Assembly: GCA_963698385.1 (NCBI GenBank)
Contig: CAVOQP010000006.1
Location: forward strand, 880,589 to 944,588
Direction: 5' to 3'
DNA from: an uncultured Acidimicrobiia bacterium
Lineage (GTDB): Bacteria; Actinomycetota; Acidimicrobiia; Spongiisociales; JAENVV01
Length of the DNA stretch: 64,000 nt
Shown: piece by piece, positions 31,901 to 63,096 of the stretch
Layout: each line of letters opens with the position of its first letter
Position numbering within the stretch: position 1 is the first letter of the stretch
Made by a program: the position numbers and the translations under genes
Notes under the pieces: generated by a model
The model's input: the letters and a program-made list of their open reading frames with translations, nothing else
What the model was told of the DNA's origin: nothing
The model's database searches: none

Positions 31901-32335
31901 GTCAACCATCCCCTGGAGGCCCATGGTTCGGCCGTCGTCCGGTGAGTACAACCGGGCCGTGCCCTCCGTGGCGAGTGCCTCGGCCTCGAGGGGAAGGATG
32001 GTGCCTCCTCCCCCGCCGAATACCTGGATCCCGGTCCCGCCCATGTCGTCGAGTCGGGCACGCAGGTAGCGGAAGAACTCCATGTGTCCTCCCTGGTAGG
32101 AGGTGATGGCTACGCCGTCCGCATCCTCTTGGATGGCTGCGGCCGCGACCTCCTCCACGGAGCGGTTGTGGCCGAGATGGATGACCTCGGCGCCGCTCGA
32201 CTGGAGGATGCGGCGGAAGATGTTGATGGCTGCGTCATGCCCATCGAAGAGGCTGGTCGCAGTGACGAACCGGAGTCCCCGCCGGTCGGTCGGGAGGTCC
32301 ACCTGGCGTGCGACGGGATCGGAGGTCACGGTCAT
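28964..32335 (-). CDS. icmF: fused isobutyryl-CoA mutase IcmF (B12-binding domain + MeaB-like G-protein + methylmalonyl-CoA-mutase-like catalytic domain)
   Basis: N-terminal B12-binding DGHD...; GxxGxGKSS P-loop ([13 protein letters not shown]), NKSD; C-terminal mutase TIM-barrel segments; 1123 aa. Confidence 0.85.
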
Positions 32336-32925
32336 GGGCGGTCCTCCTCCAGCATGTGGATGGCGAGGTCGGCAACGCGCTCGGCCGTCGCGTCGGGATC
32401 CTCCGCGTCGGCATCGAACCATTGGTAGACCCAGTTCCCCAGCGCCAGGACGGAGTTGGCCGCGATCCGGGCGTCGAGGTCGGGACGGATCGTTCCGTTT
32501 GCCTGCCCCGCTTCGATGAGCGTTCGAACGAACCGGTCGTAGGTGCGCCGATCGCGACCGACTCGCTCGCGCCGCTCCCCCGCCAACGCCTCGAACTCCC
32601 TGAAGTACACGCCGATCTGGGCGATGTTGCGGCAGTTGTAGGCCGAGTGGTCCCTCGCGAACCATCGGAGTCGCTCCAGGTGGCTTCCCTCTCGTTCCCG
32701 GGCAAGGGAGAGTCGCTCCATGGCGGCGGCATGCACGTCATCGATGATGCCAACCAGGAGGTCCTCCTTCGAACCGATGTGGTGGTAGAGGCTGCCTTTG
32801 AGCATTCCCACCGCGTCCGCGACGTCCTGGGTGGTGGTTGCCCCGTATCCCTTTCGGAAGAAGAGATCGGCGGCGGCATCGAGGATCTGCTGGTATCGCT
32901 CGGTGGGTGGGCTGGCAACGGTCAT
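32332..32925 (-). CDS. TetR/AcrR family transcriptional regulator
   Basis: N-terminal [31 protein letters not shown]; ATGA overlap with icmF. Confidence 0.8.
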
Positions 32926-34773: not shown

Positions 34774-35349
34774 TCACGCCTTCCTTGGCGAACGCCCCAT
34801 GGTGTAGAACTCGTCGTTGGGCTGCATGCCGGTCACGTTCGCCATCCGGTTGGAGAGCGCGAAGAGCGCAGTGATCGCCCCGATGTCCCAGATGTCCTCA
34901 TCGTCGAAGGCGTGGGCGTGCAGCGTTTCGAAGTCGGAGTCGGTGACGTCCTGCGACCGTTGGGCCACCTTCGTCGCGAAGTCGAGCATCGCCTTCTGGC
35001 GGGCCGTGATGGGAGCCTTGCGGTAGTTGATGGCGACCTGGTCGCCAAGCAATGGCTCCTTGCTGTAGATCCGCAGGAACGCCCCGTGGCTGACGACGCA
35101 ATAGAGGCACTCGTTGGTCGCCGAGGTCGCCACGACGATCATCTCCTTCTCGGCCTTCGTGAGGTTCCCCGCCCGCTCCATCACGGCGTCGTAGTAGGCG
35201 AAGAATGCCCTGAACTCGTCCGGCCGGTGCGCCATGCCCAGGAACACATTCGGCACGAAGCCCGCCTTCTCCGCAACCTCGATGACTTGGGCCTTGATGT
35301 CGTCGGGTAGTTCGTCCAGTTCGGGGACGGGATAGCGGTCGGCGGCCAT
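34774..35349 (-). CDS. carboxymuconolactone decarboxylase / AhpD-like peroxidase-related protein
   Basis: NECLYCVVSHG (CxxC..H) AhpD-core-like motif. Confidence 0.6.
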   Translation of the reverse strand: MAADRYPVPELDELPDDIKAQVIEVAEKAGFVPNVFLGMAHRPDEFRAFFAYYDAVMERAGNLTKAEKEMIVVATSATNECLYCVVSHGAFLRIYSKEPLLGDQVAINYRKAPITARQKAMLDFATKVAQRSQDVTDSDFETLHAHAFDDEDIWDIGAITALFALSNRMANVTGMQPNDEFYTMGRSPRKA

Positions 35350-35480
35350 TGGAGTCTCCGTTCGTCGTTGCCGCCGAGCCTACGCCAGCACTGCGAGGAC
35401 TCGGGCTCAAGGTCGTGCTCGGGCTTCTTTGCTCGTGCTCGATTCGGAACAACCGGCGGCACCCTAGGGTTGATCCAGCC

Positions 35481-35966
35481 ATGAAGCGACCACTGGCGTT
35501 CCTCGCCGTCCTGACCATCGTCGCCGCTGCCTGCAGCTCCCCTACCAACGATGCTGTCCAGGCTGAAGGCGACCTTCCCCTGGCATCCGCACAGGAGATC
35601 AGCGACATCGTCGCAGCCGACCCGAGGCCGGCAGTCGTCAACGTGTGGGCGTCATGGTGTGGACCGTGCCGCTCAGAGGCCCCACTCCTCCGCGAGGCTC
35701 ATGCCGAGTACGGCGACCGGGTCCTGTTCATCGGCGTCGACATCCAGGACACCCAGCAATCGGCGAAGGAGTTCATCGAGGAGTTCGACCTCGGTTTCGA
35801 CCACTACTTCGACCCGAACCGAGACGTCCCGGCCGCCTGGGGCGGGCTCGGTGTCCCACTCACCTACTTCCTGTCCACCGACGGGGAGATCCTTGCCCTC
35901 CACAACGGCATACTCGACGAGCGGAGCCTGGTCGAGGGCCTCGAGGGCTTGCTCGCCGACTCCTGA
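35481..35966 (+). CDS. TlpA-like thiol:disulfide oxidoreductase lipoprotein
   Basis: signal peptide with lipobox AAAC; WASWCGPCR active site. Confidence 0.8.
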   Translation: MKRPLAFLAVLTIVAAACSSPTNDAVQAEGDLPLASAQEISDIVAADPRPAVVNVWASWCGPCRSEAPLLREAHAEYGDRVLFIGVDIQDTQQSAKEFIEEFDLGFDHYFDPNRDVPAAWGGLGVPLTYFLSTDGEILALHNGILDERSLVEGLEGLLADS

Positions 35967-49250: not shown

Positions 49251-49915
49251 CGTTCTGGCGTCAGGCCTTCGCCATCACCCGTCGCGACCTCCTCGCCGAA
49301 GGACGAGCCGGGGACGTGCTGTGGATCGTCATCCCCTACGGGGCGCTCGCCGTCTTCCTCTCCCCCATCGCCCTCAATTCGTCGAGGGCGATCCTCAGCG
49401 AGATCGGGCTCGGGCTCAACTGGCTCATCGTCCTGCTCTTTGGCATGTTCGTGACCTTCCGCCGCTCCGCCCAGGCAACCGCGGCTGAGTCGGACATGCT
49501 GGCGCTCATGCTCGGCGACCCGGCGTCGTCCTTCCTCGGACGAACCGTGTCCTCGACGGCCCTCCTCCTTGCATTCCAACTCGTCATGACGCCCCTGACC
49601 ATGGGGCTCTTCTCCCCCGCACCACCGCGCTCATGGGCTGCGTACGCGGGTGTGGCGGCACTTGCCGCACTTGGACTCGGCATGATCGGGACCATCGCCG
49701 GGTCGCTCGTGGCGGGGACCGGGGCGGGGACCGCCCTCGCCCCGCTGCTCACCGGGGCGCTCAGCTTCCCGCTGCTCGTGGGCGCGGCCATCTCCACCGA
49801 CCGGTTGACCGGGGGCGACAGTATCCTCGCCCCCGTCGCACTCCTTGCCCTCGTGGACGTCGCAGTCCTCACGGCCGGGGTGTTGACCTCCCGCCCGCTC
49901 GAGGAGACAGCGTGA
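49247..49915 (+). CDS. ccmB: heme exporter permease CcmB
   Basis: ATGA overlap with ccmA; six TM helices; position in ccm locus. Confidence 0.75.
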   Translation: MTFWRQAFAITRRDLLAEGRAGDVLWIVIPYGALAVFLSPIALNSSRAILSEIGLGLNWLIVLLFGMFVTFRRSAQATAAESDMLALMLGDPASSFLGRTVSSTALLLAFQLVMTPLTMGLFSPAPPRSWAAYAGVAALAALGLGMIGTIAGSLVAGTGAGTALAPLLTGALSFPLLVGAAISTDRLTGGDSILAPVALLALVDVAVLTAGVLTSRPLEETA

Positions 49916-50625
49916 AGCTTGCGCAACGAATCCTGACGGTCCTCGCCCTTGCGGCGATCATCACGGGTCTCGTCCTTGCCATGAACACCGAGCCCGACGC
50001 AGTGCAGGGCGAGTTCGCCCGCGTGTTCCACGTGCACGTCCCATCCGCCTGGCTGGCATTCCTGGCCTTCGGGGTGACACTGCTGGGCTCGATCGGGTGG
50101 CTGATCTGGCGGAAACCCGCGGCCGACCACCTGGCCGCCGCCTCGGCTGAGATCGGGGTCTTCTTCACCGGCCTCGCGCTCGTCACCGGCATGATCTGGG
50201 GATACCCCGTGTGGGGCGTCGCCTGGGACTGGGGAGACGCTCGGCTGGTCTCCACCGCGGTGATGTTCTTCGTCTATGTCGGTTACCTCGCCCTCCGGAG
50301 AGCGATCCCCGACCCGGTCGTACGCGCCACCCGCTCGGCGGTGCTCGGATCCCTCGCCTTCCTGCTGGTGCCTGCCGTCTACTTCTCGGTCGAGATCTTC
50401 CGGACGCTGCATCAGGGCATGACGATCACCCCCCAGGGCGCGTCGATGAGTTCTGAGATGCTGGTCGCCTTCCTCGTCAACCTCATGGCGTTCACGATCC
50501 TCTACCTGGCGTTCCTCGTCAGCCGCACCCGCCTGGCATTCGCCCAGGCGGAGGCCGCGGCGAGTCGACCGGTGTCGGGGCTGGGCGACGTCGAACCTCC
50601 CGACCTGGGGGCCATCCGTGGCTGA
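49912..50625 (+). CDS. ccmC: heme exporter protein CcmC
   Basis: GTG start overlapping ccmB stop; W-rich motif VWGVAWDWGDARL (WxWD-type heme-handling motif); conserved His residues. Confidence 0.8.
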   Translation: MKLAQRILTVLALAAIITGLVLAMNTEPDAVQGEFARVFHVHVPSAWLAFLAFGVTLLGSIGWLIWRKPAADHLAAASAEIGVFFTGLALVTGMIWGYPVWGVAWDWGDARLVSTAVMFFVYVGYLALRRAIPDPVVRATRSAVLGSLAFLLVPAVYFSVEIFRTLHQGMTITPQGASMSSEMLVAFLVNLMAFTILYLAFLVSRTRLAFAQAEAAASRPVSGLGDVEPPDLGAIRG

Positions 50626-50719
50626 GGGTTGGGTCACGTTTGCCTACGTCGTCGTATACGGCTTCATCGTCGGGTATGGCGTCTCGTTGGCGGTTCGCTG
50701 GCGGAGGCTCCGCAAGTGA
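50618..50719 (+). CDS. ccmD: heme exporter protein CcmD-like small membrane protein (33 aa; not in ORF track)
   Basis: VAEGWVTFAYVVVYGFIVGYGVSLAVRWRRLRK: single TM helix followed by basic tail, GTG start overlapping ccmC end, GTGA overlap with ccmE start. Confidence 0.6.
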   Translation: MAEGWVTFAYVVVYGFIVGYGVSLAVRWRRLRK

Positions 50720-51144
50720 CACAGCCGGACCGACCCGGGCCTGCCGCGGGCCGGCGCCTCTTCGTCGTCGGGGCCGTGCTGGCCATCGTCGCGCTCGCCG
50801 CCGTGCTCCTCAACCAACTCTTGGCAGAGAACTCCGTCCTCTACCTCGAGCCGCGGGAGGCCCTCGACCAACGAGATGAACTCCCCGATGGTGAGGCATT
50901 CCGACTCGGCGGGTGGATCGTCCCCGGCAGCCTGTCAGATGGTGGCGGAACACTCACCTTCGAGGTGACCGACTTCGCCGAGGTGATCCCGGTTCGCACC
51001 GGGGCCACTCCACCCCAACTGTTCGGAGAGGACATCCCGGTCCTGCTCGACGGCGCCTTCGAGGGCGACACTTTCGTGGCCACCGGGATCATCCTTCGTC
51101 ACGAGGAGAACTACCAGCCGCCGGAGGACGAGGCAGACGAATGA
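50716..51144 (+). CDS. ccmE: cytochrome c-type biogenesis heme chaperone CcmE
   Basis: N-terminal TM then LRHEENYQPP-like C-terminus; FRLGGWIVPGSL...GTLTFEVTD OB-fold region; position in locus. Confidence 0.75.
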   Translation: MTQPDRPGPAAGRRLFVVGAVLAIVALAAVLLNQLLAENSVLYLEPREALDQRDELPDGEAFRLGGWIVPGSLSDGGGTLTFEVTDFAEVIPVRTGATPPQLFGEDIPVLLDGAFEGDTFVATGIILRHEENYQPPEDEADE

Positions 51145-53135
51145 TCGCCCTCATCGGCCTCCTCGGGGTGCTGGCGGGGGTAGTCGGTGGGCTCTGGCTG
51201 GCCACTGCGGCGTTCTCCTCGGCCCGGGAAGCAACCCCGGACCTCCGCCGTCCGGTCGGGTTCCTCCTCTCGGGAGCGATCATCTCGATGCTCGCGCTCG
51301 TCGCCGGCCTCCTCACCGATGACTTCTCCATCGCCTACGTGGCCAACCACAGCGCCGCCTCGACGCCGTTTGTCTTCAAGGTGGCCTCGGCGTGGGGGGC
51401 CCTTGAAGGGTCGATCGTCCTGTGGGGCCTCGTGCTCGCGACAGCGGTGTGGTGGTCGCTGCGATCCCGACGCGACGCCCTCGACCGACTCGACGTCCTC
51501 GCGCTGGGAGTCATGGGGGTCGTAGCGGTCTTCTTCTTCGGGCTCATGGCGACCGTCGCCAATCCATTCGAGGTCTGCACGATCCCGGCGAGCATCGGAT
51601 GTGCGGACTCGTCGTGGTGGCCGTTCGTCGCGGGTAGCGCACCCGCCCAGGGCCGCGGCCCCAATCCGCTCCTTCAGAACCACATCCTCATGGCCATCCA
51701 TCCCCCGATGCTGTACCTCGGGTACGTCGGACTCACCGCCCCATTCAGCTACGCCATTGCCGCCCTGCTCGTCGGCACCCCCGGCGTGGCGTGGGTGACC
51801 CGCACCCGTCGCCTCACGCTGCTGGCCTGGGCCTTCCTGACGATCGGCATCCTCCTCGGTGCATGGTGGTCGTACGAGGTGCTCGGCTGGGGCGGCTACT
51901 GGGGATGGGACCCCGTGGAGAACGCATCGCTGCTTCCCTGGATCACCGCGACGGCCTTCCTCCACTCCTCGGCCGTCCAGGTCCGGCGGGGAGCGCTCCA
52001 GGCCTGGAACTTCGTCCTCGTGATCGCGTCGTTCGCCCTCACCATCCTCGGTACGTTCCTCACGCGATCCGGGGTGATCACCTCGGTTCACTCCTTCACC
52101 CAATCGGCCATCAGTCCACTCCTGCTCGGGTTTTTCGTGGTGGTGATCGTCGGCGGCCTCGGCCTCTTCGCCCTTCGCTCGCACCTCGTGGCCACACCCG
52201 GCACGGTCGACGAGCCGATCAGCCGAGCAGGAGGCCTCCTCGTCAACAACATCCTGCTCTCGGCATGGGCGGTCACGGTGCTGATCGGAACCGTGTACCC
52301 GATCCTCGTGGAAGCCTTTGCCACCCGGACCGTGGGCGTTGGACGAGGCTTCTTCGACGCCACCACGATCCCCCTCGCCTTCACGTTGCTCCTTGTGATG
52401 GGATTCGGCGAGGTCGCCCCATGGAAGAAGGCCGCGTGGTCGACGGTCCGGGGCCGGATGGCGCTCCCAGCCCAGGTCGCGCTCGGGGTGGGAGCCGGGG
52501 CGGTCCTCCTCGGTGTTCGCTCCCGAGGAGCCCTGACGGCCATCACCTTGGCCGTCTTCGTGGCTGTCCCACCCATCAAGGAACTCGTACGCCTCACACG
52601 GACCCGGGCCGGGAAGGGGACGCCGGCGCTCGCCGCCCTGCTCGGCATCGTGCGCCGCGACCGGGGGTATTGGGGCGGCATGCTCTCCCATCTGGGGATT
52701 GCCGTCATCGTGATCGGGATTGCCGGCTCCGGGGGTTTGGCCACGACCCACCGGGAGGTCGAACTGCCCCGAAACGAGACGGTCGTCGTCGGCGACTACT
52801 CGCTCTCCTTCACCGGCGGATTCACGACGACCGAGCCACAACGAACCGTCACCGGGGCAACCATCGAACTACGCCGGGACGGCGACCTGGTCACGCTCCT
52901 GCGGCCGACGATCAACGACTACCGGGTGCAGGCCGTCCCAACACCCGCCGTCGACACCTCGATCACCCGGGATGTCTATGTCTCTCTGCGCTCCATCGAT
53001 GGCAGTCGAGCCATCGTCGACATGCACGTCTTCCCACTCCAATGGATGGTCTGGGTTGGCGGCTTCCTGGTGGCGTCCGGCGGTTTCTGGGCGCTGTCGA
53101 GCCGCACCCGGGAGCGTGAGGTCGCACGGGCATGA
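51141..53135 (+). CDS. ccmF: cytochrome c-type biogenesis protein CcmF (heme lyase)
   Basis: 664 aa polytopic; W-rich motif LGWGGYWGWDPVENASLLPW; conserved His. Confidence 0.85.
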   Translation: MIALIGLLGVLAGVVGGLWLATAAFSSAREATPDLRRPVGFLLSGAIISMLALVAGLLTDDFSIAYVANHSAASTPFVFKVASAWGALEGSIVLWGLVLATAVWWSLRSRRDALDRLDVLALGVMGVVAVFFFGLMATVANPFEVCTIPASIGCADSSWWPFVAGSAPAQGRGPNPLLQNHILMAIHPPMLYLGYVGLTAPFSYAIAALLVGTPGVAWVTRTRRLTLLAWAFLTIGILLGAWWSYEVLGWGGYWGWDPVENASLLPWITATAFLHSSAVQVRRGALQAWNFVLVIASFALTILGTFLTRSGVITSVHSFTQSAISPLLLGFFVVVIVGGLGLFALRSHLVATPGTVDEPISRAGGLLVNNILLSAWAVTVLIGTVYPILVEAFATRTVGVGRGFFDATTIPLAFTLLLVMGFGEVAPWKKAAWSTVRGRMALPAQVALGVGAGAVLLGVRSRGALTAITLAVFVAVPPIKELVRLTRTRAGKGTPALAALLGIVRRDRGYWGGMLSHLGIAVIVIGIAGSGGLATTHREVELPRNETVVVGDYSLSFTGGFTTTEPQRTVTGATIELRRDGDLVTLLRPTINDYRVQAVPTPAVDTSITRDVYVSLRSIDGSRAIVDMHVFPLQWMVWVGGFLVASGGFWALSSRTREREVARA

Positions 53136-54109
53136 CCGCCCGTCGCCTCGCCAGTTGGACATTCACCGTCGTCGCCGCCGGGATCCTGCTGTGGGGGATG
53201 ATCGCCGTCCAGGGTGGTGACATCGACCCGCTCGCCATCGGGGACAAGATCGCCTGCCCGAAGTGCGAGGGCGAGTCGATCGCCGCGTCCCAGACGCAGA
53301 CCGCCCGGGCGATGATGGTCATCGTCGAGGAGCGCATCGCCGAGGGACTGTCCGAGCGTGAGATCCTCGACTGGTTCGCAGCCCGGTACGGGCCTGACAT
53401 CGTCCTCGAGCCCCCGCTCGACCTCGGAGGGTTGGCGCTGTGGGCGATCCCCATGGTCGTGGTGGCGGGCGGGGCGATTGTCGCCGTCCGCTCCTCGAAG
53501 GGACGGCAAGAGGAACCAGACTCCGCACCCTCCGGGCGTCGTAGCCTCGTGGTGCTTGGCGTGGCCGCGCTGGTCCTGACCGGCCTCGCGTTCGGTATCG
53601 GGCAGTTCGTTCAACCCCGAGCCGCCGGCTCGGCGGTGAGCGGGAACCTCGAGGTGGGCACCAGCACCGACCTCGACGGTGTGAGCAATGCCGAGATGGA
53701 GGAATTGCTCCAGCAGTTCGCCGGGATCCCGGAGGCCAACCGAATGCGCCTCGCGCTTGCGCGGAGGTACTTCGAGGAAACGAACTACTCGAAAGCCGTC
53801 GAGCACTTCCAACTCGTCCTCGGCAACGACCCAACGCCATTGGAGGCGAGTGAGGCACTCGGCCGGATCGGCTGGATCCTCTTCGCCAACGGCGAGCTCG
53901 CGGCGGCGGAATCGGCCTATGTCCAAGCGCTCGACGCCCTGCCCGGGAACGGAGAGGCGAAGTGGTTCTACGCCATCCTCCTGGTCGATTCCGACCGCGG
54001 CCCGGAGGCCGTGCCCCTCCTGGAGGAGCTCCTGGCGGACGAGACCGTTCCGCCGGAGATCATGACGGAGATCGAAGTCCTTCTCGACCAGGCCAAGGTG
54101 GGCACGTGA
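53132..54109 (+). CDS. ccmH: cytochrome c-type biogenesis protein CcmH (CxxC) with C-terminal TPR (CcmI-like) domain
   Basis: CPKCEGES redox motif after N-terminal TM; second TM; TPR-like C-terminus. Confidence 0.75.
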   Translation: MTARRLASWTFTVVAAGILLWGMIAVQGGDIDPLAIGDKIACPKCEGESIAASQTQTARAMMVIVEERIAEGLSEREILDWFAARYGPDIVLEPPLDLGGLALWAIPMVVVAGGAIVAVRSSKGRQEEPDSAPSGRRSLVVLGVAALVLTGLAFGIGQFVQPRAAGSAVSGNLEVGTSTDLDGVSNAEMEELLQQFAGIPEANRMRLALARRYFEETNYSKAVEHFQLVLGNDPTPLEASEALGRIGWILFANGELAAAESAYVQALDALPGNGEAKWFYAILLVDSDRGPEAVPLLEELLADETVPPEIMTEIEVLLDQAKVGT

Positions 54110-54675
54110 AGCGTTGGCCCACATGGGTGGCGATCGGCGTGATCGTCGTATTCGCCGGGTTCATGGCTGGACGCCTTGGCCTCGGCGAGTCCATCCCCGA
54201 GTCGCCGCTCATCGGCTCCCCCGTCACCGACATGGAACTCCCACTCCTCGAGGAGGAAGGCAGCATCCGACTCACCGACTACGCGGGGAAGATCGTCGTC
54301 GCCAACTTCTGGGCCTCGTGGTGCACCCCGTGTCGTGAGGAGCATCCGGCGTTCGTGGCAGCAGCCGACCTCTACGCCGGTGAAGGCGTCCAGTTCGTGG
54401 CCATCAACCATGAGGACCCGGGCGACGCCGGCAGCCGCTTCCTGGACGCATACGGCCGAAGCATCCACCAGGTGGTCGTGAGGGACGAGGGCAGCCGGGC
54501 GGGGATCGAGTTCGGTGTATTCGGCCTCCCGGAGACCTTCTTCATCGATGGCAAGGGAATCATCGTCGGTCGGGTCGCGGGGGCGATCGACCTGCCGATT
54601 CTCATCGACTTCATCACCCAGATCCAGGCGGGCGACGCCCCCGGGGAGCTGGACGGCATCGTTTACCGGCCGTAG
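54106..54675 (+). CDS. ccmG: thiol:disulfide oxidoreductase CcmG/DsbE (TlpA family)
   Basis: WASWCTPCREEHP active site; GTGA overlap with ccmH. Confidence 0.8.
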   Translation: MKRWPTWVAIGVIVVFAGFMAGRLGLGESIPESPLIGSPVTDMELPLLEEEGSIRLTDYAGKIVVANFWASWCTPCREEHPAFVAAADLYAGEGVQFVAINHEDPGDAGSRFLDAYGRSIHQVVVRDEGSRAGIEFGVFGLPETFFIDGKGIIVGRVAGAIDLPILIDFITQIQAGDAPGELDGIVYRP

Positions 54676-54720: not shown

Positions 54721-55857
54721 ATGCCATCTCCCACAGGACCCCTCTCTGGTCTCCTCGTCGCCGACTTCTCGCGGATCGTCGCCGGCCCGCTCGCAGCCCA
54801 GATCCTCGGTGATCTCGGGGCCGAGGTCATCAAGGTGGAACACCCGGATGGGGATGACCCCCGGCGTTGGGGTCCCCCGTGGACGGAGGACGGCGTCTCG
54901 ACCTACTTCCTGGCGGCCAACCGCAACAAGCGGTCGATCCGGCTCGACCTCAAGGATCCTGCAGACCTCGCACTGGCCCACACGTTGGCGGAACGGGCCG
55001 ATGTGCTCCTCGAGAACATGAAGCCCGGCGGAATGGATGGTCTGGGATTCGGCTACGGCGACGTGGTGGCGGCCAACCCTGGACTGATCTACGTCTCGCT
55101 CTCCGGGTACGGGTCGAGGAGCGTTCGGCCCGGCTACGACTTTCTTCTCCAGGCCGAGTCGGGGCTCATGAGCACCACGGGGACCGCCGACGGTCAGCGT
55201 CTCAAGGTCGGGGTGCCCGCGGTGGACATCTTCGCCGCCCACTACGCGACCATCGGGGCGTGCGCAGCCCTCTTCGAGAGGGAGACGTCGGGGGTCGGCC
55301 AGCACGTCGAGCTCAGCCTCATGGGGGCCGCCCAGGCAAGCCTTCTCAACCAAGCGTCGGCATGGCTCAACGGAGGCGTGGTGCCCCACCCGATGGGCAA
55401 CAGCCATCCTTCCATCACGCCCTACGAGCCCTTCGAGGCGACGGACGGGACGTTCGTCGTTGCGACTGCCAGCGAGCCGCAGTGGCGGAGCCTGTGTGAA
55501 ATCCTCGGACTTGAGGATCTCATCGCCGACTCCCGCTATCGCACGAATGCCGATCGAGTGGAGCATCGGGCCGAGCTGCTACGGATCCTGGGCGAGCGGT
55601 TCGCAACCAGGCCACGGTCTGCTTGGATCGCGGACCTGGCGGATGCGGGCATTCCGTGTGGCGCTGTCAATGACATCCCCGGGGGCCTCGCCTTGGCCGT
55701 GACCGAGGGAGTGGAGCCGACGATCGAACTGGGAGGCCGCAAGGGCATCGCCAGCCCACTGGGATTCTCCCGCACACCGGTCTCCTACCGCTTGCCGCCC
55801 CCGGGGCTTGGCGAGCACGACGGCGAGCTACGCGCCTGGCTGTCAGAACCAACCTGA
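54721..55857 (+). CDS. CoA-transferase family III (CaiB/BaiF) protein
   Basis: LSGLLVADFSRIVAGP N-terminus, conserved Asp region typical of family III CoA-transferases. Confidence 0.75.
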   Translation: MPSPTGPLSGLLVADFSRIVAGPLAAQILGDLGAEVIKVEHPDGDDPRRWGPPWTEDGVSTYFLAANRNKRSIRLDLKDPADLALAHTLAERADVLLENMKPGGMDGLGFGYGDVVAANPGLIYVSLSGYGSRSVRPGYDFLLQAESGLMSTTGTADGQRLKVGVPAVDIFAAHYATIGACAALFERETSGVGQHVELSLMGAAQASLLNQASAWLNGGVVPHPMGNSHPSITPYEPFEATDGTFVVATASEPQWRSLCEILGLEDLIADSRYRTNADRVEHRAELLRILGERFATRPRSAWIADLADAGIPCGAVNDIPGGLALAVTEGVEPTIELGGRKGIASPLGFSRTPVSYRLPPPGLGEHDGELRAWLSEPT

Positions 55858-55864
55858 CCCCTGG

Positions 55865-56572
55865 TCACGCCAACCGGTGCTCCTGCAGGAACGGGAGGTC
55901 TGCGACGATCTCCCCGATATCGCCGTCCCGGACGACGCGGCCACGGTCCAGCACGATCGCCCGAGTACACAGCGCGTGGGCAAGGTCGAGGTGATGGGTG
56001 ACGAGGAGGAGTGCCTCCGGGAGGTCTGCCAGGAGGTGTGTGAGCTCACGTCGACCGGCGGGGTCGAGGCCTGATGAGGGTTCGTCCATGATGAGGAGCC
56101 GGGGCCGCATCGCCAGGACGCCGGCGATCGCCACCCTCCGTCGCTCACCTGCTGAGAGGTGGTGGGGAGCTCGTCCCGCGAGGTGGGCAGCCCCGACCCT
56201 GGCCAGGTTCTCTCGAACCACTTCGACCAGCTCCTCCCCTGTCACCCCGTAGTTGGCGGGTCCGAAGGCCACATCGTCTCGCACAGTGGGCATGAAAAGC
56301 TGATCGTTGGGGTCCTGGAAGACCAGCCCGACATGGCGACGAAGCTCGAACGCCGAATCCGCGGTGAGCTTCTCATCGACGATCTCGACGGTGCCGGCGG
56401 TGGGAAGGACAACCCCCATCAACGCCAACACGAGTGTCGTCTTGCCGGCGCCATTCGGTCCGAGGAGCGCCACCCGCTCGCCCTCTTCGATCGAGAACCC
56501 GACGTCCACCAGCGCCACCTCACCGCCCGGGAATGTGTGCCCAACCCGCTCGACTGACACGAGCCTGCTCAC
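55865..56572 (-). CDS. ECF transporter ATP-binding protein (CbiO/NikO/EcfA)
   Basis: Walker A GPNGAGKTT, signature LSAGERRRV, Walker B LLIMDEPSSGLD; GTGA overlap with Q-component. Confidence 0.8.
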   Translation of the reverse strand: MSRLVSVERVGHTFPGGEVALVDVGFSIEEGERVALLGPNGAGKTTLVLALMGVVLPTAGTVEIVDEKLTADSAFELRRHVGLVFQDPNDQLFMPTVRDDVAFGPANYGVTGEELVEVVRENLARVGAAHLAGRAPHHLSAGERRRVAIAGVLAMRPRLLIMDEPSSGLDPAGRRELTHLLADLPEALLLVTHHLDLAHALCTRAIVLDRGRVVRDGDIGEIVADLPFLQEHRLA

Positions 56573-57330
56573 AGCGCCACCGCCACGGCCGCGGCAAGCA
56601 CCGCCACCGACGGAAGGGCCAGACCGGCCCCCCAGTCGCCGAGTGATGCGGTCGCCCCGAACGGCGTCGGCATGACGCCTCGGTAGCCGCGGACCACCAT
56701 TGCAGCATGGATCCGCTCGCCACGTTCGAAGGCCCGGACCAGCATCGTGCCGACGAGCATCGCGAGTACCCGCACCGCACCCAGCCCGGTCGCCCGATAG
56801 CCGCGGACGGCGGCGGCAGTACGCATCCGTCCGAACTCGCCTGCGAGGACATCGAGGTAGCGGATCATGAACCCGGCGATCGCCACCAGGACGGCCGGCA
56901 GCTTGAGGCGGCTGAGCCCGGCAAGGATGTCGGGCACCTCGGTGGTGGCGGCCAGCACGACGGAGGCCCCAGTGCCCAGGGAGGCCCTGGCCAGGATCGA
57001 CCACGCCGACCACAGGCCCTCCCCGCTGAGCGCCACACCGAGGACGGCGACCCGGGGGTCGGGACCGACGAATGGCAGGAACGCGGCGAAGAGCACGAAT
57101 GGGACCTCCACCACCATCCGCCGGACAACGAAGCCCACGGCCAGTTCGGAGCGGGCAATGACGAACGCCAGGACGACCGCGTGAAGCCCAAAGGCCCAGA
57201 CGGCCGCCCTGGGTGTGGCGACAACAGCAGCAAGGAACAGGAGGAGCGCAGCCACTTTGACATGCGGGGCGAGGCCGTGGGCCCGACTGTGGCCGTGGAC
57301 GTAGAGAGCATGGGTGTGGAGACCGCTCAT
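56569..57330 (-). CDS. ECF transporter transmembrane component CbiQ/NikQ
   Basis: polytopic membrane protein between M/N and O components; ATGA overlaps both sides. Confidence 0.65.
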   Translation of the reverse strand: MSGLHTHALYVHGHSRAHGLAPHVKVAALLLFLAAVVATPRAAVWAFGLHAVVLAFVIARSELAVGFVVRRMVVEVPFVLFAAFLPFVGPDPRVAVLGVALSGEGLWSAWSILARASLGTGASVVLAATTEVPDILAGLSRLKLPAVLVAIAGFMIRYLDVLAGEFGRMRTAAAVRGYRATGLGAVRVLAMLVGTMLVRAFERGERIHAAMVVRGYRGVMPTPFGATASLGDWGAGLALPSVAVLAAAVAVAL

Positions 57331-58286
57331 CGGCCGGCCGGCCGACGGAGGAGTCGAGTGAGGCCCCACAAGAGCATCCCGGCGACGACTGCACCAACAA
57401 TGCCGGCCACCCCGACGGCCACGACATTGCTTTCGAGCCCGGGGAGTGCGTACCCCGCGAGTGGGCTATCGGACAATTGATGGTCCAGCGCTGCCTCGTC
57501 GAATCCGAGTTGGATGGCGACCCGCTGCAACCCGTCGGGTGACGACGCCGCGAATGGCGCCACCCCAAGCGCCAGCACCCCCACGAGGACGGCTCCCGCC
57601 ACGACAGCGCCCCGGTTGGTGGTCGACGGCTGGCCGTCCAGGCCACCGACCCCGACCGCGACATCCGGGCGAACCCGCATGAGGGCTCCGACGATCAAGG
57701 CACTGATGAGTCCCTCGCCGACCCCGATGACAAGGTGGACGGAGGTCATGGCCGCCAGTACGGATCCAAGGGGTGCTCCCCCTTGCCCTCCCAACGCGTA
57801 CTCGATGGAGAAGGCGACCGCTGATGCCACCACCGAAGCCAACCCCGCGAGGAACACCGCGACGGTCACGGCCCAGCGGCGGTCCGGGGTGACAGACCGA
57901 ACGAGCCGAAACACCGCCCAGCCGACCAGGACGGTGACGACGGCCATGTTGAGCAGGTTCGACCCCAGGGCCGAGATCCCACCGTCGGCGAACACGAGTG
58001 CCTGCACTCCGACCACGACGGTGAGCACGAGGACACCCAGCCACGGGCCGAGGAGGACTGCAGCGAGCGCCCCTCCCAGGAGGTGCCCCGAGGTGCCGAA
58101 GGCAACGGGGAAGTTGAGCATCTGTAGGACGAAGATCATCGCGGCCGAGATGCCGGCCAGCGGGATCCGCCGGTCAGTGGAGAGTGATCGCCCTGACTGA
58201 CGGAGCGCAGCTCCGATGCCCCCCGCCGCCACGAGACCCGTGCCGATCGAGGTGGTCGCGTTCAGGAATCCATCCGGTATGTGCAC
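57327..58286 (-). CDS. fused Ni/Co ECF transporter substrate-capture components CbiM-CbiN (NikMN-like)
   Basis: N-terminal MHIPDGFL metal-binding hallmark; about 320 aa with additional C-terminal TM pair consistent with fused N component. Confidence 0.8.
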   Translation of the reverse strand: MHIPDGFLNATTSIGTGLVAAGGIGAALRQSGRSLSTDRRIPLAGISAAMIFVLQMLNFPVAFGTSGHLLGGALAAVLLGPWLGVLVLTVVVGVQALVFADGGISALGSNLLNMAVVTVLVGWAVFRLVRSVTPDRRWAVTVAVFLAGLASVVASAVAFSIEYALGGQGGAPLGSVLAAMTSVHLVIGVGEGLISALIVGALMRVRPDVAVGVGGLDGQPSTTNRGAVVAGAVLVGVLALGVAPFAASSPDGLQRVAIQLGFDEAALDHQLSDSPLAGYALPGLESNVVAVGVAGIVGAVVAGMLLWGLTRLLRRPAGR

Positions 58287-58303
58287 CGTCGGAGCGTACC
58301 TTG

Positions 58304-58320
58304 TTGCAAGGGACTTGCAT
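58304..58320 (-). promoter_or_regulatory. Nur-box-like palindrome TTGCAA-gggac-TTGCAT 18-34 nt upstream of cbiM/nikM start; candidate operator for adjacent Fur-family regulator
   Basis: sequence read directly; resembles Streptomyces Nur consensus tcTTGCAA-N5-TTGCAAga as recalled. Confidence 0.4.
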
Positions 58321-58354
58321 TAGGGGACTGGATGGTGTCCCGGTGAGCTTGCGC

Positions 58355-58990
58355 CTATCCGTAGCTCGTGAGGGTGTCGAGCTTCTCTCGTACTCCGTCC
58401 TCACCGAGGGCGCCCGACCACTGGTCGACGATCACGCCGTTGAAGATCATCACCGTGACCGGCTGGTACGGGACCCCATAGGCCTCGAAGATGGCTTCCT
58501 CGGCGTCGAGCCCCCATTGGATCGCCCCGGCTCCGAGCAGTTCGTTCGCCTTGGCCAAGGTCTTCTCGAACGAACCCTTCCACGCGACCGCGACGAACGC
58601 GACCTCGTCTTCATAGTCCGCACTCACCTTGTCGACAACGGGCAACTCCCGTTGACAGGTGCCTCACCATTCGGCCCAGAACACCAGGTAGACGGGCCGG
58701 GCCTCCTCCGACAACGTGAACGAGCGACCGTCGCCCAATGCGAGGGTGAAATCGGGCGCAGGTGGACCGGCAGGGGGTGCAACCGTCTCGGCCGGCGGAG
58801 GGTCGGTCTCGGTCGGAGCAGGGCTCTCGAGGTCCGCCGGGGGTGACTCGGCTTGGCCGAGCGTGGACGGCGCCACCACCGCCGTCGAGGAACTGACGCC
58901 GCCCTCGGCGATCGAGTCCTGGGTGCTGGGGGCGGCACAGGCGACCGCCACGAGCAGGAGGGCAACGAGATGTGGGGCCCGGGGGGTCAT
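58355..58990 (-). CDS. TlpA/ResA-like thioredoxin-fold lipoprotein, candidate selenoprotein (in-frame UGA at 58664-58666 replacing first Cys of CxxC: FWAEW-U-GTC)
   Basis: two adjacent ORFs (58664-59044 and 58355-58645) are one continuous thioredoxin fold if TGA is read through; lipobox VAVAC; hairpin caacggg-agttg-cccgttg begins 9 nt 3' of UGA. Confidence 0.6.
58636..58654 (-). ncRNA. candidate bacterial SECIS hairpin (mRNA element) 9 nt downstream of the in-frame UGA
   Basis: perfect 7-bp stem CAACGGG/CCCGUUG with 5-nt loop AGUUG in coding mRNA. Confidence 0.45.
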
Positions 58991-59000
58991 ACCGACCACT

Positions 59001-59021
59001 CTATGGGTCGACACCCCATAG
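59001..59021. promoter_or_regulatory. inverted repeat CTATGGG-N7-CCCATAG in the fur-tlpA(Sec) intergenic region
   Basis: read directly; located 11-31 nt upstream of the tlpA start on the minus strand. Confidence 0.3.
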
Positions 59022-59047
59022 GGGTAGGACCCGAAGGACAACAATCC

Positions 59048-59482
59048 CTAAACGGCCTCGCCGAGCGAGCAGGCGGCGCAGGTACCGACGAGGGCGAAGT
59101 GGAGGGTGTCGGCGGCGAAGCCGTGGCGATCGGCCACCGGGGACAGGGCACTGAGGACCTCGGCTGCTGGGATATCCACGACGACACCACACACGCGGCA
59201 GCTGAGGTGGTGATGCGGCTCCTCGGTGAGATGGACAACCGTCGTCCCTTGGCCAGTGTGCACGTGCTCGACGAGCCCGAGTCCCTGGAGAACCTCGATT
59301 GTCCGGTAGACGGTCGATGCATCGATCCGGCCCCCGGTGAGTGCCTCGGCGCCGGCCTTCAGCTCGACGGCTGAATGGTGGCGGTCCGGTCCGGAGGCGA
59401 GCACTTCGCACAGCGCCGTCCGGGCGGCGGTGATCCGCATCCCCTCTGCCCGAAGGGCGTCGAGGAGGAGGTCTGCGTTCAA
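59048..59482 (-). CDS. Fur family metalloregulator (Nur/Zur/PerR-like)
   Basis: RITAARTALCEVL DNA-binding helix, HHH..C and CxxC metal sites (HLTEEPHHHLSCRVCG, CAAC). Confidence 0.8.
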   Translation of the reverse strand: MNADLLLDALRAEGMRITAARTALCEVLASGPDRHHSAVELKAGAEALTGGRIDASTVYRTIEVLQGLGLVEHVHTGQGTTVVHLTEEPHHHLSCRVCGVVVDIPAAEVLSALSPVADRHGFAADTLHFALVGTCAACSLGEAV

Positions 59483-60498
59483 CCCTTGAGCTCCGCGGAG
59501 CGGACGAGCACCCGGTCGAGCGTCTCGGCGGCGGCCCCGGAATCGATGGTCTCCCTGGCAACCCGCACTCCGTCGACGAACCCCGCGGCCAGGCCGGCCA
59601 CCACGAGGGGGGCCGACGCGTTGATGAGGACGATGTCCCGCCGGGGTCCCCGCTCCCCCTCGAGCACCGACCGGAGGATCCCGGCGTTCGTCTCCGCGTC
59701 GCCACCGAGGACATCCTCGATGGAGCCCCGGTCCACCCCGAAGTCCTCTGGTGTGAACTCGGCCACCGTGATCTCCCCCTCGCGAAGCCGATAGATGAAC
59801 GACGGCGCTGCTATCGAGAGCTCGTCGAGTCCGTCCTCGCCGTAGTAGACGAAGGCGTTGGCAGCCCCGAGGTTGCGGAGGACGTTGATCATTTTCTCGG
59901 CCATGGCGCTGTCGGAGACGCCAATGGCCAGGTTCGTGGCCCCTGCGGGGTTGGTGAGGGGGCCGAGGAAGTTGAAGACGGTCGGGATACCGAGTTCCTT
60001 GCGGACGGGTACGGCATGGCGCATGGACGGGTGGTACGCCGGCGCGAACAGGAAACCGAACCCGGTCTCCTCGATCAACTGTGCGGTCGTCTCCGGGTCG
60101 AGGTCGAGTGGGTATCCGAGCGCTTCGAGCACGTCGGCGGCACCTGACTTCGAGGAGGCCGAGCGGTTCCCGTGCTTTGCGACCCGCCCCCCGGCTGCTG
60201 CGACGACGAAGGCACTGGTCGTGGAGATGTTGAACGTGCCGGATCGATCGCCACCGGTCCCGACCACGTCAACGAGGGGGCCGGGGACCGGGCACTTCAC
60301 CGAGGCTTCGCGCATTGCCTCGACGAGACCGGTCAGTTCGTCAACCGTCTCGCCTTTCATCCGCAAGGCCACGATGAGGGCAGCTGTCTGGGAAGGGGTT
60401 GCTTCGCCGGCCATGACGACCTGCATCGCCTTGCGTGCCTCGCTCCGTGTGATGTCTGCTCCCGAGGCGAGCTTGCCGAGTGTCTTGGCCCAGTCCAC
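59479..60498 (-). CDS. trpD: anthranilate phosphoribosyltransferase
   Basis: GTGGD motif (VDVVGTGGDRSGTFNIST), KHGNRS, conserved N-terminal ALRMKGET; GTG start with ggag RBS; ATGA overlap with fur. Confidence 0.85.
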   Translation of the reverse strand: MDWAKTLGKLASGADITRSEARKAMQVVMAGEATPSQTAALIVALRMKGETVDELTGLVEAMREASVKCPVPGPLVDVVGTGGDRSGTFNISTTSAFVVAAAGGRVAKHGNRSASSKSGAADVLEALGYPLDLDPETTAQLIEETGFGFLFAPAYHPSMRHAVPVRKELGIPTVFNFLGPLTNPAGATNLAIGVSDSAMAEKMINVLRNLGAANAFVYYGEDGLDELSIAAPSFIYRLREGEITVAEFTPEDFGVDRGSIEDVLGGDAETNAGILRSVLEGERGPRRDIVLINASAPLVVAGLAAGFVDGVRVARETIDSGAAAETLDRVLVRSAELKG

Positions 60499-60638
60499 TG
60501 AGTCTCCAGATCCGTGTTCGAGCCGCGATGGTAGAGCGTCCCAGAAGAGAGCGGCAGGACGAGCAGCCGCTGCCAGCACGCAGTGAACACACCGTCCACC
60601 CTGAATAGACTTGAAGCGACGCCGAGGAGACCACCCAC

Positions 60639-61103
60639 ATGACCGCCAGAGATGTGTATTACTTCGCGTACTCCTCACTGCTGTCACCCGAGGTGCTCTC
60701 GAGGGTCGCACCGAAGGCTTCCTTTCTGCTGACGGCACATCTTCCCGAGACGAAACTCCTCTTCCGGGACCCGGGCATGCGGTGGGAAGGGGCGATACCA
60801 ACCGTGATCGCCGAGGAGGGAAACACGGTGTGGGGGGCGCTCTTCCATGTCACGAAGGACGAACTGGCCGCCATCGATGCCGAGGAAGCCGCGAATGGTC
60901 GAGTACCAACCGAGAGCTTCTCGGCGGTTGATCGTGAGGGGAAGCGCTACTGGGTGGTCACCCACATCGTCGAGGTTGGCCCGGAGGCGGCCCCCGACCT
61001 CACGTACATCGAGCACATGGTCACCGGGGGAACCCACTGGCGTCTCCCGACCGGCTGGGTTCTCAACCTCGAGGACTACCTCGAGGAGGACCTGCTCGCA
61101 TGA
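60639..61103 (+). CDS. gamma-glutamylcyclotransferase-like (AIG2/GGACT family) protein
   Basis: N-terminal YYFAYSSLL matches YGSNL-type GGCT motif; about 150 aa. Confidence 0.6.
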   Translation: MTARDVYYFAYSSLLSPEVLSRVAPKASFLLTAHLPETKLLFRDPGMRWEGAIPTVIAEEGNTVWGALFHVTKDELAAIDAEEAANGRVPTESFSAVDREGKRYWVVTHIVEVGPEAAPDLTYIEHMVTGGTHWRLPTGWVLNLEDYLEEDLLA

Positions 61104-62246
61104 CATCACATGGGGGATCGGACCTGAGCCTCGAAGGACCCGTCCTCGAACGACTCTCACGACTCGATCGCTTCCTCCCGATCTGGATCCTCTCTGCCAT
61201 GGCGCTCGGGATCGCCCTCGGCCGAGTGGTCCCTGATCTCGATCAATGGCTCGACGCCGTGAAGGTCGGCACCGTCTCACTCCCGATCGCGATCGGGTTG
61301 CTGGCCATGATGTATCCGGTGCTGGCCAAGGTTCGCTACTCCCGGGTCGGCAACGTCGTCAGCGACCGCAGGCTCATGACCACCTCACTCGTGTTGAACT
61401 GGGTTGTCGGTCCCGCTCTCATGTTCGCCCTGGCCTGGCTCCTCCTTCCGGACCTCCCCGAGTACCGCACCGGCCTCATCATCGTCGGCCTGGCTCGCTG
61501 CATCGCGATGGTCCTGATCTGGAACGACCTGGCCTGCGGCGACCGAGAGGCCGCTGCCGTCCTCGTCGCCCTCAACTCGATGTTCCAGATCGTTGCCTAC
61601 GCCGTCCTCGGCTACTTCTACCTCGAGCTCCTTCCCGGGTGGCTGGGTCTCAGCACCGCGACGCTCGACGTGGCGATGTGGGAGATCGCCAAGATCGTCC
61701 TTGTCTTCTTGGGTGCTCCACTGGTCGCCGGATATCTCACCCGACTCTGGGGGGAACGAACGCGCGGCGCCGAGTGGTATGAGACCCGATTCCTCCCCAG
61801 GATCTCACCGTGGGCGCTCTATGGCCTGCTCTTCACCGTGGTGGTCCTCTTCGCCCTGCAGGGCCAAGCCATCACCTCCCAACCCGTCGATGTGCTGCGC
61901 ATCGCGCTCCCCCTGCTCGCCTACTTCGTGCTGATGTGGGGCCTGTCCTTCGCGCTCGGACTCAGACTTGGGTTTCTCGTACGACAAGAACACCACATTG
62001 GCGTTCACCGCCGCCGGCAACAACTTCGAGTTGGCGATCGCCGTCGCCATCGGCGTGTTCGGTGTCACGTCCGGCCAGGCACTCGCCGGAGTCGTCGGCC
62101 CGCTCATCGAGGTCCCGGTTCTCGTCGCCCTCGTCTACGTCGCCCTGTGGGCCCGGCGCCGGTTCTACCAGCCGAACGCCGGGGCTGTCGTACCTCCGAG
62201 TGAATACCCGTCCAACCCGGGAGCAGACGGCGACCCGCATGACTGA
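61100..62246 (+). pseudogene. ACR3 family arsenite efflux transporter with +1 frameshift in TTT run at about 61973-61975 (pseudogene or homopolymer error)
   Basis: N-terminal LDRFLPIWILSAMALGIALG (ACR3 hallmark) in frame of 61100; C-terminal [31 protein letters not shown] continues in ORF 61968-62246. Confidence 0.6.

Positions 62247-62717: not shown

Positions 62718-63096
<379 letters not shown>

Follow-up and report, generated by a model that had tools for sequence, protein, structure and literature searches.

We analysed a stretch of 64,000 nucleotides (64 kb) from an uncultured Acidimicrobiia bacterium (contig CAVOQP010000006.1, 1.34 Mb in length, positions 880,589 to 944,588), referred to below as the window, and in particular a gene cluster on its minus strand that contains a Fur-family regulator gene and the genes of a putative nickel importer. 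Between positions 55865 and 60498 this strand carries six genes, separated by tiny gaps or overlapping each other: trpD, fur, tlpA, nik(MN), nikQ and nikO. The first of these, trpD (59479-60498), encodes an anthranilate phosphoribosyltransferase (TIGR01245, 407 bits with a cut-off of 199; PF00591 and PF02885). It is followed by the gene for the regulator, a Fur-family protein of 144 amino acids (aa) with a TTG start codon (59048-59482; PF01475, 73.5 bits with a cut-off of 23.1), whose N-terminus, MNADLLLDALR, agrees with that of its homologues. The start codon of fur (TTG, 59482-59480) and the stop codon of trpD (TGA, 59481-59479) overlap in the sequence gTTGA. An earlier reading of the window, made from the sequence alone and hereafter called the original prediction, had assumed translational coupling of these genes through an ATGA; the overlap was confirmed, but its sequence is TTGA, and close relatives have either TTGA or GTGA at this junction. 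The location of trpD directly upstream of fur, either overlapping or within ~70 nt, is also found in loci L081-L086 and L088, and in many metagenome loci.

Downstream of fur lies tlpA (58355-58990), coding for a TlpA/ResA-like lipoprotein with a thioredoxin fold, which is 211 aa long when an in-frame TGA codon at 58664-58666 is read as selenocysteine, and which matches the Pfam families Redoxin, AhpC-TSA and Thioredoxin when this residue (U) is replaced by C. The next gene, nik(MN) (57327-58286), encodes a protein of 319 aa in which the S component of an energy-coupling factor (ECF) transporter (CbiM domain PF01891, 200 bits, aa 2-208) is fused to an N-like PDGLE domain (PF13190, 43.5 bits, aa 228-315). 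Its GTG start codon, with an in-frame stop codon immediately upstream, gives a protein that begins with MHIPDGFL. Both the N-terminus and the fused N-like domain of the nickel or cobalt importer were as the original prediction had described them. An ATGA overlap (57327-57330) connects nik(MN) to nikQ (56569-57330), the gene for the T component (PF02361; TIGR02454, 127 bits with a cut-off of 111.8), for which the ATG at 57330 is the most likely start codon, giving a protein of 253 aa, the same length as CbiQ of L081 and L083. A GTGA overlap then leads into nikO (55865-56572), which has a GTG start codon and encodes the ECF ATPase of 235 aa (PF00005; the NCBIfam matches to ECF ATPase and cbiO models all remain below their own cut-offs). 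The Pfam and NCBIfam matches bore out the gene content and positions originally given for trpD, fur, tlpA and the nik genes, and nikQ and nikO lie just beyond the range, 57327-60498, that had been described. Finally, the palindrome TTGCAAGGGACTTGCAT, a predicted Nur-box-like operator, occupies 58304-58320, which leaves 17 nt between it and the nik(MN) start codon downstream.

The palindrome and the Fur-family regulator

Read in the direction of nikM, the palindrome is ATGCAA-gtccc-TTGCAA, a 6-5-6 arrangement with one mismatch to TTGCAA-N5-TTGCAA. The box that is bound by the nickel-responsive regulator Nur has been published as tTGCaa-N5-ttGCAA, and the binding of Nur to the nikM promoter of nikMNOQ was reported to depend on nickel (An et al. 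2009, PMC2691836). When up to two mismatches were allowed, 58304-58320 was the sole match in the 64 kb, with 0.20 matches expected, and when up to one mismatch was allowed, none of 100 shuffles of the window gave any match. To place the site in a wider context, relatives of the regulator were gathered by exact-protein look-ups, by a genome scan with 17 close sequences, and by a metagenome scan. A site with at most two mismatches was found upstream of nikM in 27 distinct contexts, the window included, in which the regulators of the relatives are 40-79% identical to the window protein. A position weight matrix (PWM) of 25 nt, built from 26 sites, gave the window site a score of 32.1 bits (training median 32.5), and the next-best position in the window only 9.5 bits. 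The consensus of the sites in the relatives is ctTaTTGCAA-N5-TTGCAAtAag, with half-sites and flanks that are fixed and a 5-nt spacer that is free to vary; the extended arms of the operator read cTTATTGCAA-N5-TTGCAATAAG. The proposal that a Nur-box-like operator directly precedes the M gene was therefore upheld, since the site is unique in the window and conserved in these 27 contexts.

The distance between box and start codon is 10-21 nt in most loci and 43-63 nt in one subgroup, and in one divergent locus nikM is preceded by two sites, at distances of 25 and 130 nt. All Acidimicrobiia-type loci in which NikMN adjoins the regulator carry a site with at most two mismatches, with the exception of L162, where merely a degenerate palindrome with 4 mismatches is present. 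In ~1.5 Mb of fetched loci, all sites with at most one mismatch are located upstream of nikM or, in L099, of a gene for a NicO permease. In L093 (565-1011) and L099 (623-1508), the same regulator and box (30.7 and 38.9 bits, respectively, the former with 2 mismatches) are followed by a NicO/NiCoT-type permease and not by NikMNQO. Both permeases match PF03824 above the gathering score, and have the RHG-x-DWDH signature and a His-rich loop. Thus, the same pair of regulator and box precedes two unrelated families of nickel or cobalt uptake proteins.

The regulator itself resembles Nur more than any other Fur-family protein of known structure. With the single sequence as query, 23 solved Fur-family proteins were matched, and the best of these was Nur of Streptomyces coelicolor (PDB 3EYY), with 78.8 bits compared to 64.8 bits for Zur of Mycobacterium tuberculosis. 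With a profile of 42 family members, the score of Nur was 155.7 bits, compared to 125.4 bits for the runner-up among the Fur-family proteins of known structure. The nickel site of Nur, H70/H72/H126, corresponds to H73/H75/H128 in the window protein, and these residues are nearly invariant in the 42 homologues, where the motif around them, HVH-L/T-G-H/Q-G, is almost identical to HAHLGHG of Nur. According to An et al. (2009, PMC2691836), only Nur orthologues retain the three nickel-site histidines, and DNA binding requires every one of them. At the M-site, H33, H88 and H90 of Nur correspond to H35, H90 and H92, and the DNA-contacting residues Y56 and R57 to Y59 and R60, which are invariant in the family. 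The protein also contains two CxxC motifs, C95/C98 and C135/C138.

Actinobacterial Zur proteins (2O03 and 3MWM) share with the window regulator the Fur fold, the HHH-L-x-C-x-x-C-G motif and the Cys4 motifs, but the profile scored them at 113.6 and 98.6 bits, respectively, well below Nur. Of the regulatory zinc site of M. tuberculosis Zur (D62/C76/H81/H83), C76 and D62 align with Leu85 and Glu72, so the regulatory cysteine of Zur is absent, and Zur boxes have a 1-nt centre, unlike the 5-nt spacer of the window operator. We considered a Zur identity, but the missing regulatory Cys and Asp, the 5-nt spacer, and the bit scores, which are lower than those to Nur, speak against it. The comparison with the metal sites of Nur and Zur that the original prediction had called for therefore came out in favour of Nur.

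The nickel-site histidines and the box occur together. A table of aligned residues showed H73, H75 and H128 in all box-bearing relatives, and Zur-like homologues without H73 and H128. Aside from L001 and a group of loci from Chloroflexota, the genome scan with the 17 sequences returned mostly Zur-like or other Fur homologues without NikMN nearby. The Chloroflexota set comprises nine loci from metagenome-assembled genomes (L003, L007, L009, L012, L022, L023, L032, L049 and L062), in which a Fur homologue, 29-36% identical, is encoded directly upstream of NikMN. These homologues have neither H73/H75 nor a 6-5-6 box, and they therefore provide a natural control for the pairing of signature and box. 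As a separate observation, most of the Chloroflexota NikM proteins have the HIPDG motif behind a short N-terminal leader (e.g., MLASPAQL-HIPDG) and not at the start of the protein.

With S. coelicolor Nur (SCO4180, 3EYY), whose targets are nikMNOQ, nikABCDE and sodF, the window regulator shares the Fur fold, the triad of the nickel site, three of the four M-site histidines, the two CxxC motifs and the Tyr/Arg contacts, and the TTGCAA-N5-TTGCAA palindrome is located in front of an ECF-type nikM in both cases. Unlike S. coelicolor Nur, the window regulator is encoded in cis, on the strand of its presumed target, 728 nt upstream of the box, and its gene is coupled to trpD. Other differences are the exchange of H86 for Glu, the extended arms of the box, and the Acidimicrobiia-like lineage. 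Also, no sodF-type target was seen in the 64 kb window.

Proposed promoter layout, switch and sensed metal

In the window, and in the loci L081 and L083, the box is followed by 5 nt, a TAnnnT hexamer (TACGCT, TAGGAT and TAACCT, respectively), another 6 nt, and the start codon, while the intervening bases differ. This spacing is probably that of a leaderless actinobacterial promoter for nikMN, in which case TACGCT (58293-58298, minus strand), located 6 nt upstream of the nik(MN) GTG, would be the -10 hexamer. Many of the more distant relatives have a TATACT hexamer just upstream of the box, or overlapping it, and a Shine-Dalgarno sequence after the box. Both layouts fit repression through occlusion of a putative promoter. 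In the region between tlpA and nikM no terminator-like hairpin was found, and two terminator-like matches in 55700-60900 were at chance level.

Taken together, the Fur-family protein encoded at 59048-59482 is quite likely a Nur-type, nickel-responsive repressor that would occlude the promoter of nikMNQO. Ni(II) would be loaded at the H73/H75/H128 site, together with the common M-site, and the nickel-loaded dimer would then bind the palindrome at 58304-58320, which would overlap the nik(MN)QO core promoter. The box would span the -35 and spacer region of the probable leaderless promoter in the window and in the relatives closest to it, and in the more distant relatives it would be located just downstream of the TATACT -10 hexamer, over the transcription start. 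Binding would shut off the ECF-type nickel importer; it is repression, rather than activation, that we infer here. Because there is no terminator-like hairpin between tlpA and nikM, transcription that reads through from trpD-nur-tlpA could be stopped by the bound repressor as well, and probably is. When nickel is scarce, the repressor would leave its operator, and Nik(MN)QO would import nickel for enzymes such as [NiFe] hydrogenase. The central idea of the original prediction, a Nur-like Fur paralogue acting on a Nur-box-like operator in front of an ECF-type nickel or cobalt importer, is thus supported by the comparative data.

The transporter is in line with such a role. The best PDB match of the M component is TtNikM2 (4M58, 93 bits), ahead of RcCbiM (5X3X, 66.6 bits), so that the placement of the transporter, another check suggested at the outset, points to the nickel side. 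The metal ligands of NikM are Met1, His2 and His67 (PMC3945884). In the window protein Met1 and His2 are in place, and His68 aligns with His67 of TtNikM2. In the nickel transporter RcNik(MN)QO of Rhodobacter capsulatus, M and N are naturally fused too, and with this transporter and with TtNikM2 the window protein shares the MHIP(D/E)G N-terminus. The Q and O genes follow with overlapping start and stop codons in the window. Differences from these characterised proteins are the score of just ~93 bits to TtNikM2, and the N-like part, which is a PDGLE domain. The Pfam family CbiN was not among the matches of the protein, and the NCBIfam 'CbiN' matches over the PDGLE region are weak (E 2.6e-4, far below cut-off). 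An Rfam scan of the window found no cobalamin riboswitch or other Rfam element in front of nikM. The CbiMNQO class of cobalt transporters was considered as well, but there is neither a Pfam CbiN match nor a cobalamin riboswitch in the window. No cbi or cob genes were seen among the open reading frames (ORFs) that were scanned, which did not cover every ORF of the window. Based on these comparisons, nickel appears to be the better-supported substrate of Nik(MN)QO.

Several observations weigh against this interpretation, and most of them would be explained if the regulator senses cobalt, zinc or iron, if the transporter is a CbiMNQO-type cobalt importer for B12 synthesis, and if the likeness to Nur merely reflects shared ancestry. 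With the alignment anchored on the CxxC motif, H86 of the Nur M-site corresponds to Glu88, so one M-site histidine has been replaced. NikM and CbiM bind nickel and cobalt at one and the same site; this site accommodates both metals, and nickel and cobalt are not separable by sequence. The best NCBIfam models for the M component are named 'cobalt transporter CbiM', although all matches are below cut-off, and those for the N-like part are named CbiN. The window also encodes, at 28964-32665 (minus strand), an IcmF-like protein of 1233 aa with a B12-binding domain, a MeaB GTPase and a methylmalonyl-CoA-mutase-like part, which indicates that there is a demand for cobalt too. In the wider family, the L135 and L163 relatives have the same histidine signature (41% identical) but are located upstream of ZnuA/ABC-3-type transporters: in L135 (1290-3983) and L163 (4476-4701) a degenerate box, TTGCATATCATTTGCGA or TTGCGACCGGGTCGCAG, precedes an ABC transporter of the Zn/Mn class, suggesting that metal specificity may vary across the family. 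However, in Nur the H86A mutant is the one M-site mutant that still binds DNA (An et al. 2009, PMC2691836). All three nickel-site histidines are retained in the window regulator, the regulatory cysteine of Zur is absent, and NicO permeases are found behind this box in L093 and L099. Further points against cobalt are the lack of a cobalamin riboswitch, the match of the N-like domain to PDGLE, and the greater similarity of M to TtNikM2 than to RcCbiM. A switch for another metal is therefore rather unlikely for the window cluster, while in the wider regulator family the choice of target, and perhaps of metal, varies.

Two negative results also count against a nickel switch of the proposed form. 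Neither the mismatch nor the PWM scan revealed a second box in the 64 kb window, including at the hydrogenase genes described below, and the further Nur boxes that had been anticipated in the genome were thus not encountered in this part of it. In addition, a sigma-70 consensus scan of 55700-60900 found no promoter, which makes the promoter geometry, resting on few aligned sequences, the weakest step in the mechanism.

It is very improbable that the palindrome is bound by another protein, or is a mere promoter element, and that the Fur paralogue acts elsewhere. TTGCAA does resemble the -35 hexamer TTGACA, and ~20 other relatives with enough downstream sequence, which have no tlpA beside the regulator gene, have no nik genes there either and, apart from L099, L135 and L163, no box. 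On the other hand, the half-sites, together with their cTTA...TAAG flanks, form a conserved inverted repeat around a variable 5-nt spacer, which is the pattern of an operator for a dimer, and the sequence matches the footprinted Nur box. Moreover, the box accompanies the regulator across two unrelated transporter families, and is missing from loci whose regulator has no HxH signature.

A probable selenocysteine-containing TlpA-like lipoprotein

The gene between the Nur-type regulator and the transporter encodes a protein with a signal peptide that ends in a lipobox-like AVAC (homologues have the canonical LAAC or LGAC), a linker rich in Pro, Ser and Thr, and a redoxin domain. Its NCBIfam matches to ResA, DsbE and TlpA are all below cut-off. 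The TGA is located within FWAEW-U-GTC, where it takes the place of the first Cys of a CxxC motif. A motif search in all frames showed a TGA at this position in 27 distinct orthologues, the most distant of them ~45% identical. The reading frame is conserved past the TGA in these orthologues (FWAEW*[GSTPL][TS]C[QRS][RG]ELPV[VI]). Loci L097, L130, L131 and L140 have a Cys at the position of the TGA, as do dozens of homologues that are present at full length in the databases (P0044-P0092), which are annotated as TlpA family disulfide reductases.

A hairpin resembling a selenocysteine insertion sequence (SECIS) begins 3 nt after the TGA. In the minimum free energy fold it spans 58625-58661 (minus strand), with an upper stem-loop at 58636-58654 and AGUUG as the apical loop. 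The apex, GGGAGUU(G/A)CCC, is invariant, and among 18 orthologues 93% of the hairpin cells are paired. Pair 14-30 is G-C in 10 sequences and A-U in 6, whereby a Gln/Arg change is coupled to a synonymous change of a Val codon. The conserved TGA, the existence of Cys orthologues, and the hairpin are together the usual criteria for a bacterial selenoprotein, and the TGA very probably encodes selenocysteine. Public gene calls split tlpA at this codon into short ORFs without a Pfam match, of 126 aa in the window (P0043), 97 and 96 aa in L081 (3096-3698), and 125 and 80 aa in L083 (8439-9128), making this TlpA-like family invisible to automated annotation. That the calls are right and the TGA is a true stop, of a pseudogene or between two separate small genes, is hardly credible: the folding energy of the hairpin is unexceptional (z -0.3), no selA, selB, selC or selD was seen in the scanned ORFs of the window (not all ORFs), and ARAGORN detected no tRNA genes, including tRNA-Sec, in the 64 kb, but neither a TGA conserved in 27 orthologues with conserved in-frame sequence behind it, nor the Cys orthologues, nor a hairpin whose apex is invariant and in which one pair covaries would be expected of a stop codon.

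UxxC-containing TlpA-like and thiol:disulfide interchange selenoproteins have already been catalogued. With these thioredoxin-fold families (the thiol:disulfide interchange selenoprotein, the UGC-containing TlpA family, NF041054 WAxxUGC, and NF041057 Rcas_1661 (seleno)lipoprotein) the window protein shares the fold, selenocysteine in place of the first Cys of CxxC, the existence of Cys orthologues, the SECIS hairpin downstream of the UGA, and a lipoprotein signal peptide. However, its scores against the NCBIfam selenoprotein families, 26.9 with a cut-off of 300 and 18.8 with a cut-off of 190, are so far below the thresholds that it belongs to a separate TlpA-like subfamily. Unlike in the named UxxC families, the selenocysteine forms of this subfamily are nearly always flanked by a Nur-type regulator gene on one side and nik(MN)QO on the other.

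Whether the lipoprotein has to do with nickel is another matter. The original prediction had placed a Sec-thioredoxin in a nickel regulon; its membership of the cluster stands, but that of the regulon is doubtful, as tlpA does not lie behind the box, but upstream, and there are Cys orthologues with neither fur nor nik genes beside them. Selenocysteine forms are followed by nik(MN)QO in 18 of the 20 loci that were scored, compared to neither of two loci with a Cys form beside the regulator, and none of three loci with a Cys form and no regulator. In the latter, the rest of the neighbourhood is retained: the Cys orthologues are accompanied by GGACT/AIG2 and ccm genes, with a CcmG-like redoxin of their own (L169 and L170), or have a GGACT/AIG2 and trpD neighbourhood (L171). 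Conversely, seven loci with regulator and nik genes have no tlpA. Selenocysteine is a known nickel ligand in [NiFeSe] hydrogenases. TlpA(Sec) could use a selenolate-thiolate pair to bind Ni(II) on the outer side of the cytoplasmic membrane and pass it to Nik(MN) or, alternatively, could reductively release nickel from thiol or sulfide complexes. The association of Sec forms with nik genes may, however, stem from shared descent within one clade, which counts against a role of TlpA in nickel acquisition, as do the location of tlpA upstream of the Nur box and the promoter-like conserved upstream region of its own that is present in several relatives. All in all, it is improbable that TlpA(Sec) is a working part of nickel acquisition.

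The region between fur and tlpA has two other features. A conserved block of ~60 nt (TGAACGWTCG..GGGAATGA…GGTTGCRTACASTG) is found here in L098, L101, L103, L108, L112 and L123, and may provide tlpA with a promoter or regulatory element of its own. In the window, the inverted repeat CTATGGG-N7-CCCATAG (59001-59021, within the region 58998-59021) overlaps a TAGAGT hexamer that precedes the ATG of tlpA by 7 nt, and this hexamer could represent a leaderless tlpA promoter. The palindrome at 59001-59021 was also considered as an operator candidate, but was dropped since it is not conserved in the relatives.

Hydrogenase, other genes in the window and wider setting

The window begins with genes for the small subunit (213-1082) and the large subunit (1075-2430, with RICGIC...DPCISCATH motifs) of a [NiFe] hydrogenase, directly followed by hypC (2434-2652). 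These are genuine [NiFe] hydrogenase genes, which documents a demand for nickel. They are located 55 kb from the nik cluster and have no box, so that, of the originally proposed regulon that supplies hydrogenase, the hydrogenase genes were verified but the shared regulation was not. The supply of nickel to the hydrogenase is plausible physiology, with a link that is circumstantial.

On the plus strand, System I cytochrome c maturation genes (49633-54675; ccmC-like, ccmF, ccmH-TPR, and a CcmG-like redoxin with WCTPC) converge on the nik operon. In L169 and L170, this ccm block is also found next to the Cys-type TlpA orthologues. The window codes for a third TlpA-like redoxin, with WCGPC, at 35349-35966. 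A gene for an SBF/ACR3-like permease at 61100-62246 appears to be frameshifted: the ORF at 61100-62203 ends in an Arg-rich nonsense tail, and the typical C-terminus is encoded in another frame, at 61968-62246. The RNA of bacterial RNase P, class A, was detected at 62728-63092 on the plus strand (277.6 bits, E 1.4e-89). A DUF3179 protein gene is present at 6704-8035 on the minus strand, and is also found near the regulator gene in L088 (2854-4101).

Nur, the Nur box and the control of nikMNOQ have already been published for Streptomyces, and the window probably holds a further case of this known switch. What the relatives add is a sharper model of the operator, from 26 independent sites, and a natural test of the idea of An et al. 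that the nickel site dictates recognition of the 6-5-6 box, since relatives with HxH have the box, and NikMN-adjacent Fur homologues without the signature have none. What stands out most is the probable selenocysteine lipoprotein encoded between regulator and transporter, which is conserved and mis-annotated. It flags a subfamily of TlpA-like selenoproteins for which automated annotation hides both the selenoprotein and the structure of the operon. In the searchable literature, an experimental description of the Nur circuit was found for Streptomyces only. The cluster described here would extend the circuit of Nur, Nur box and nikMNQO to a large, uncultured clade of the Acidimicrobiia type, in which regulator and target adjoin.

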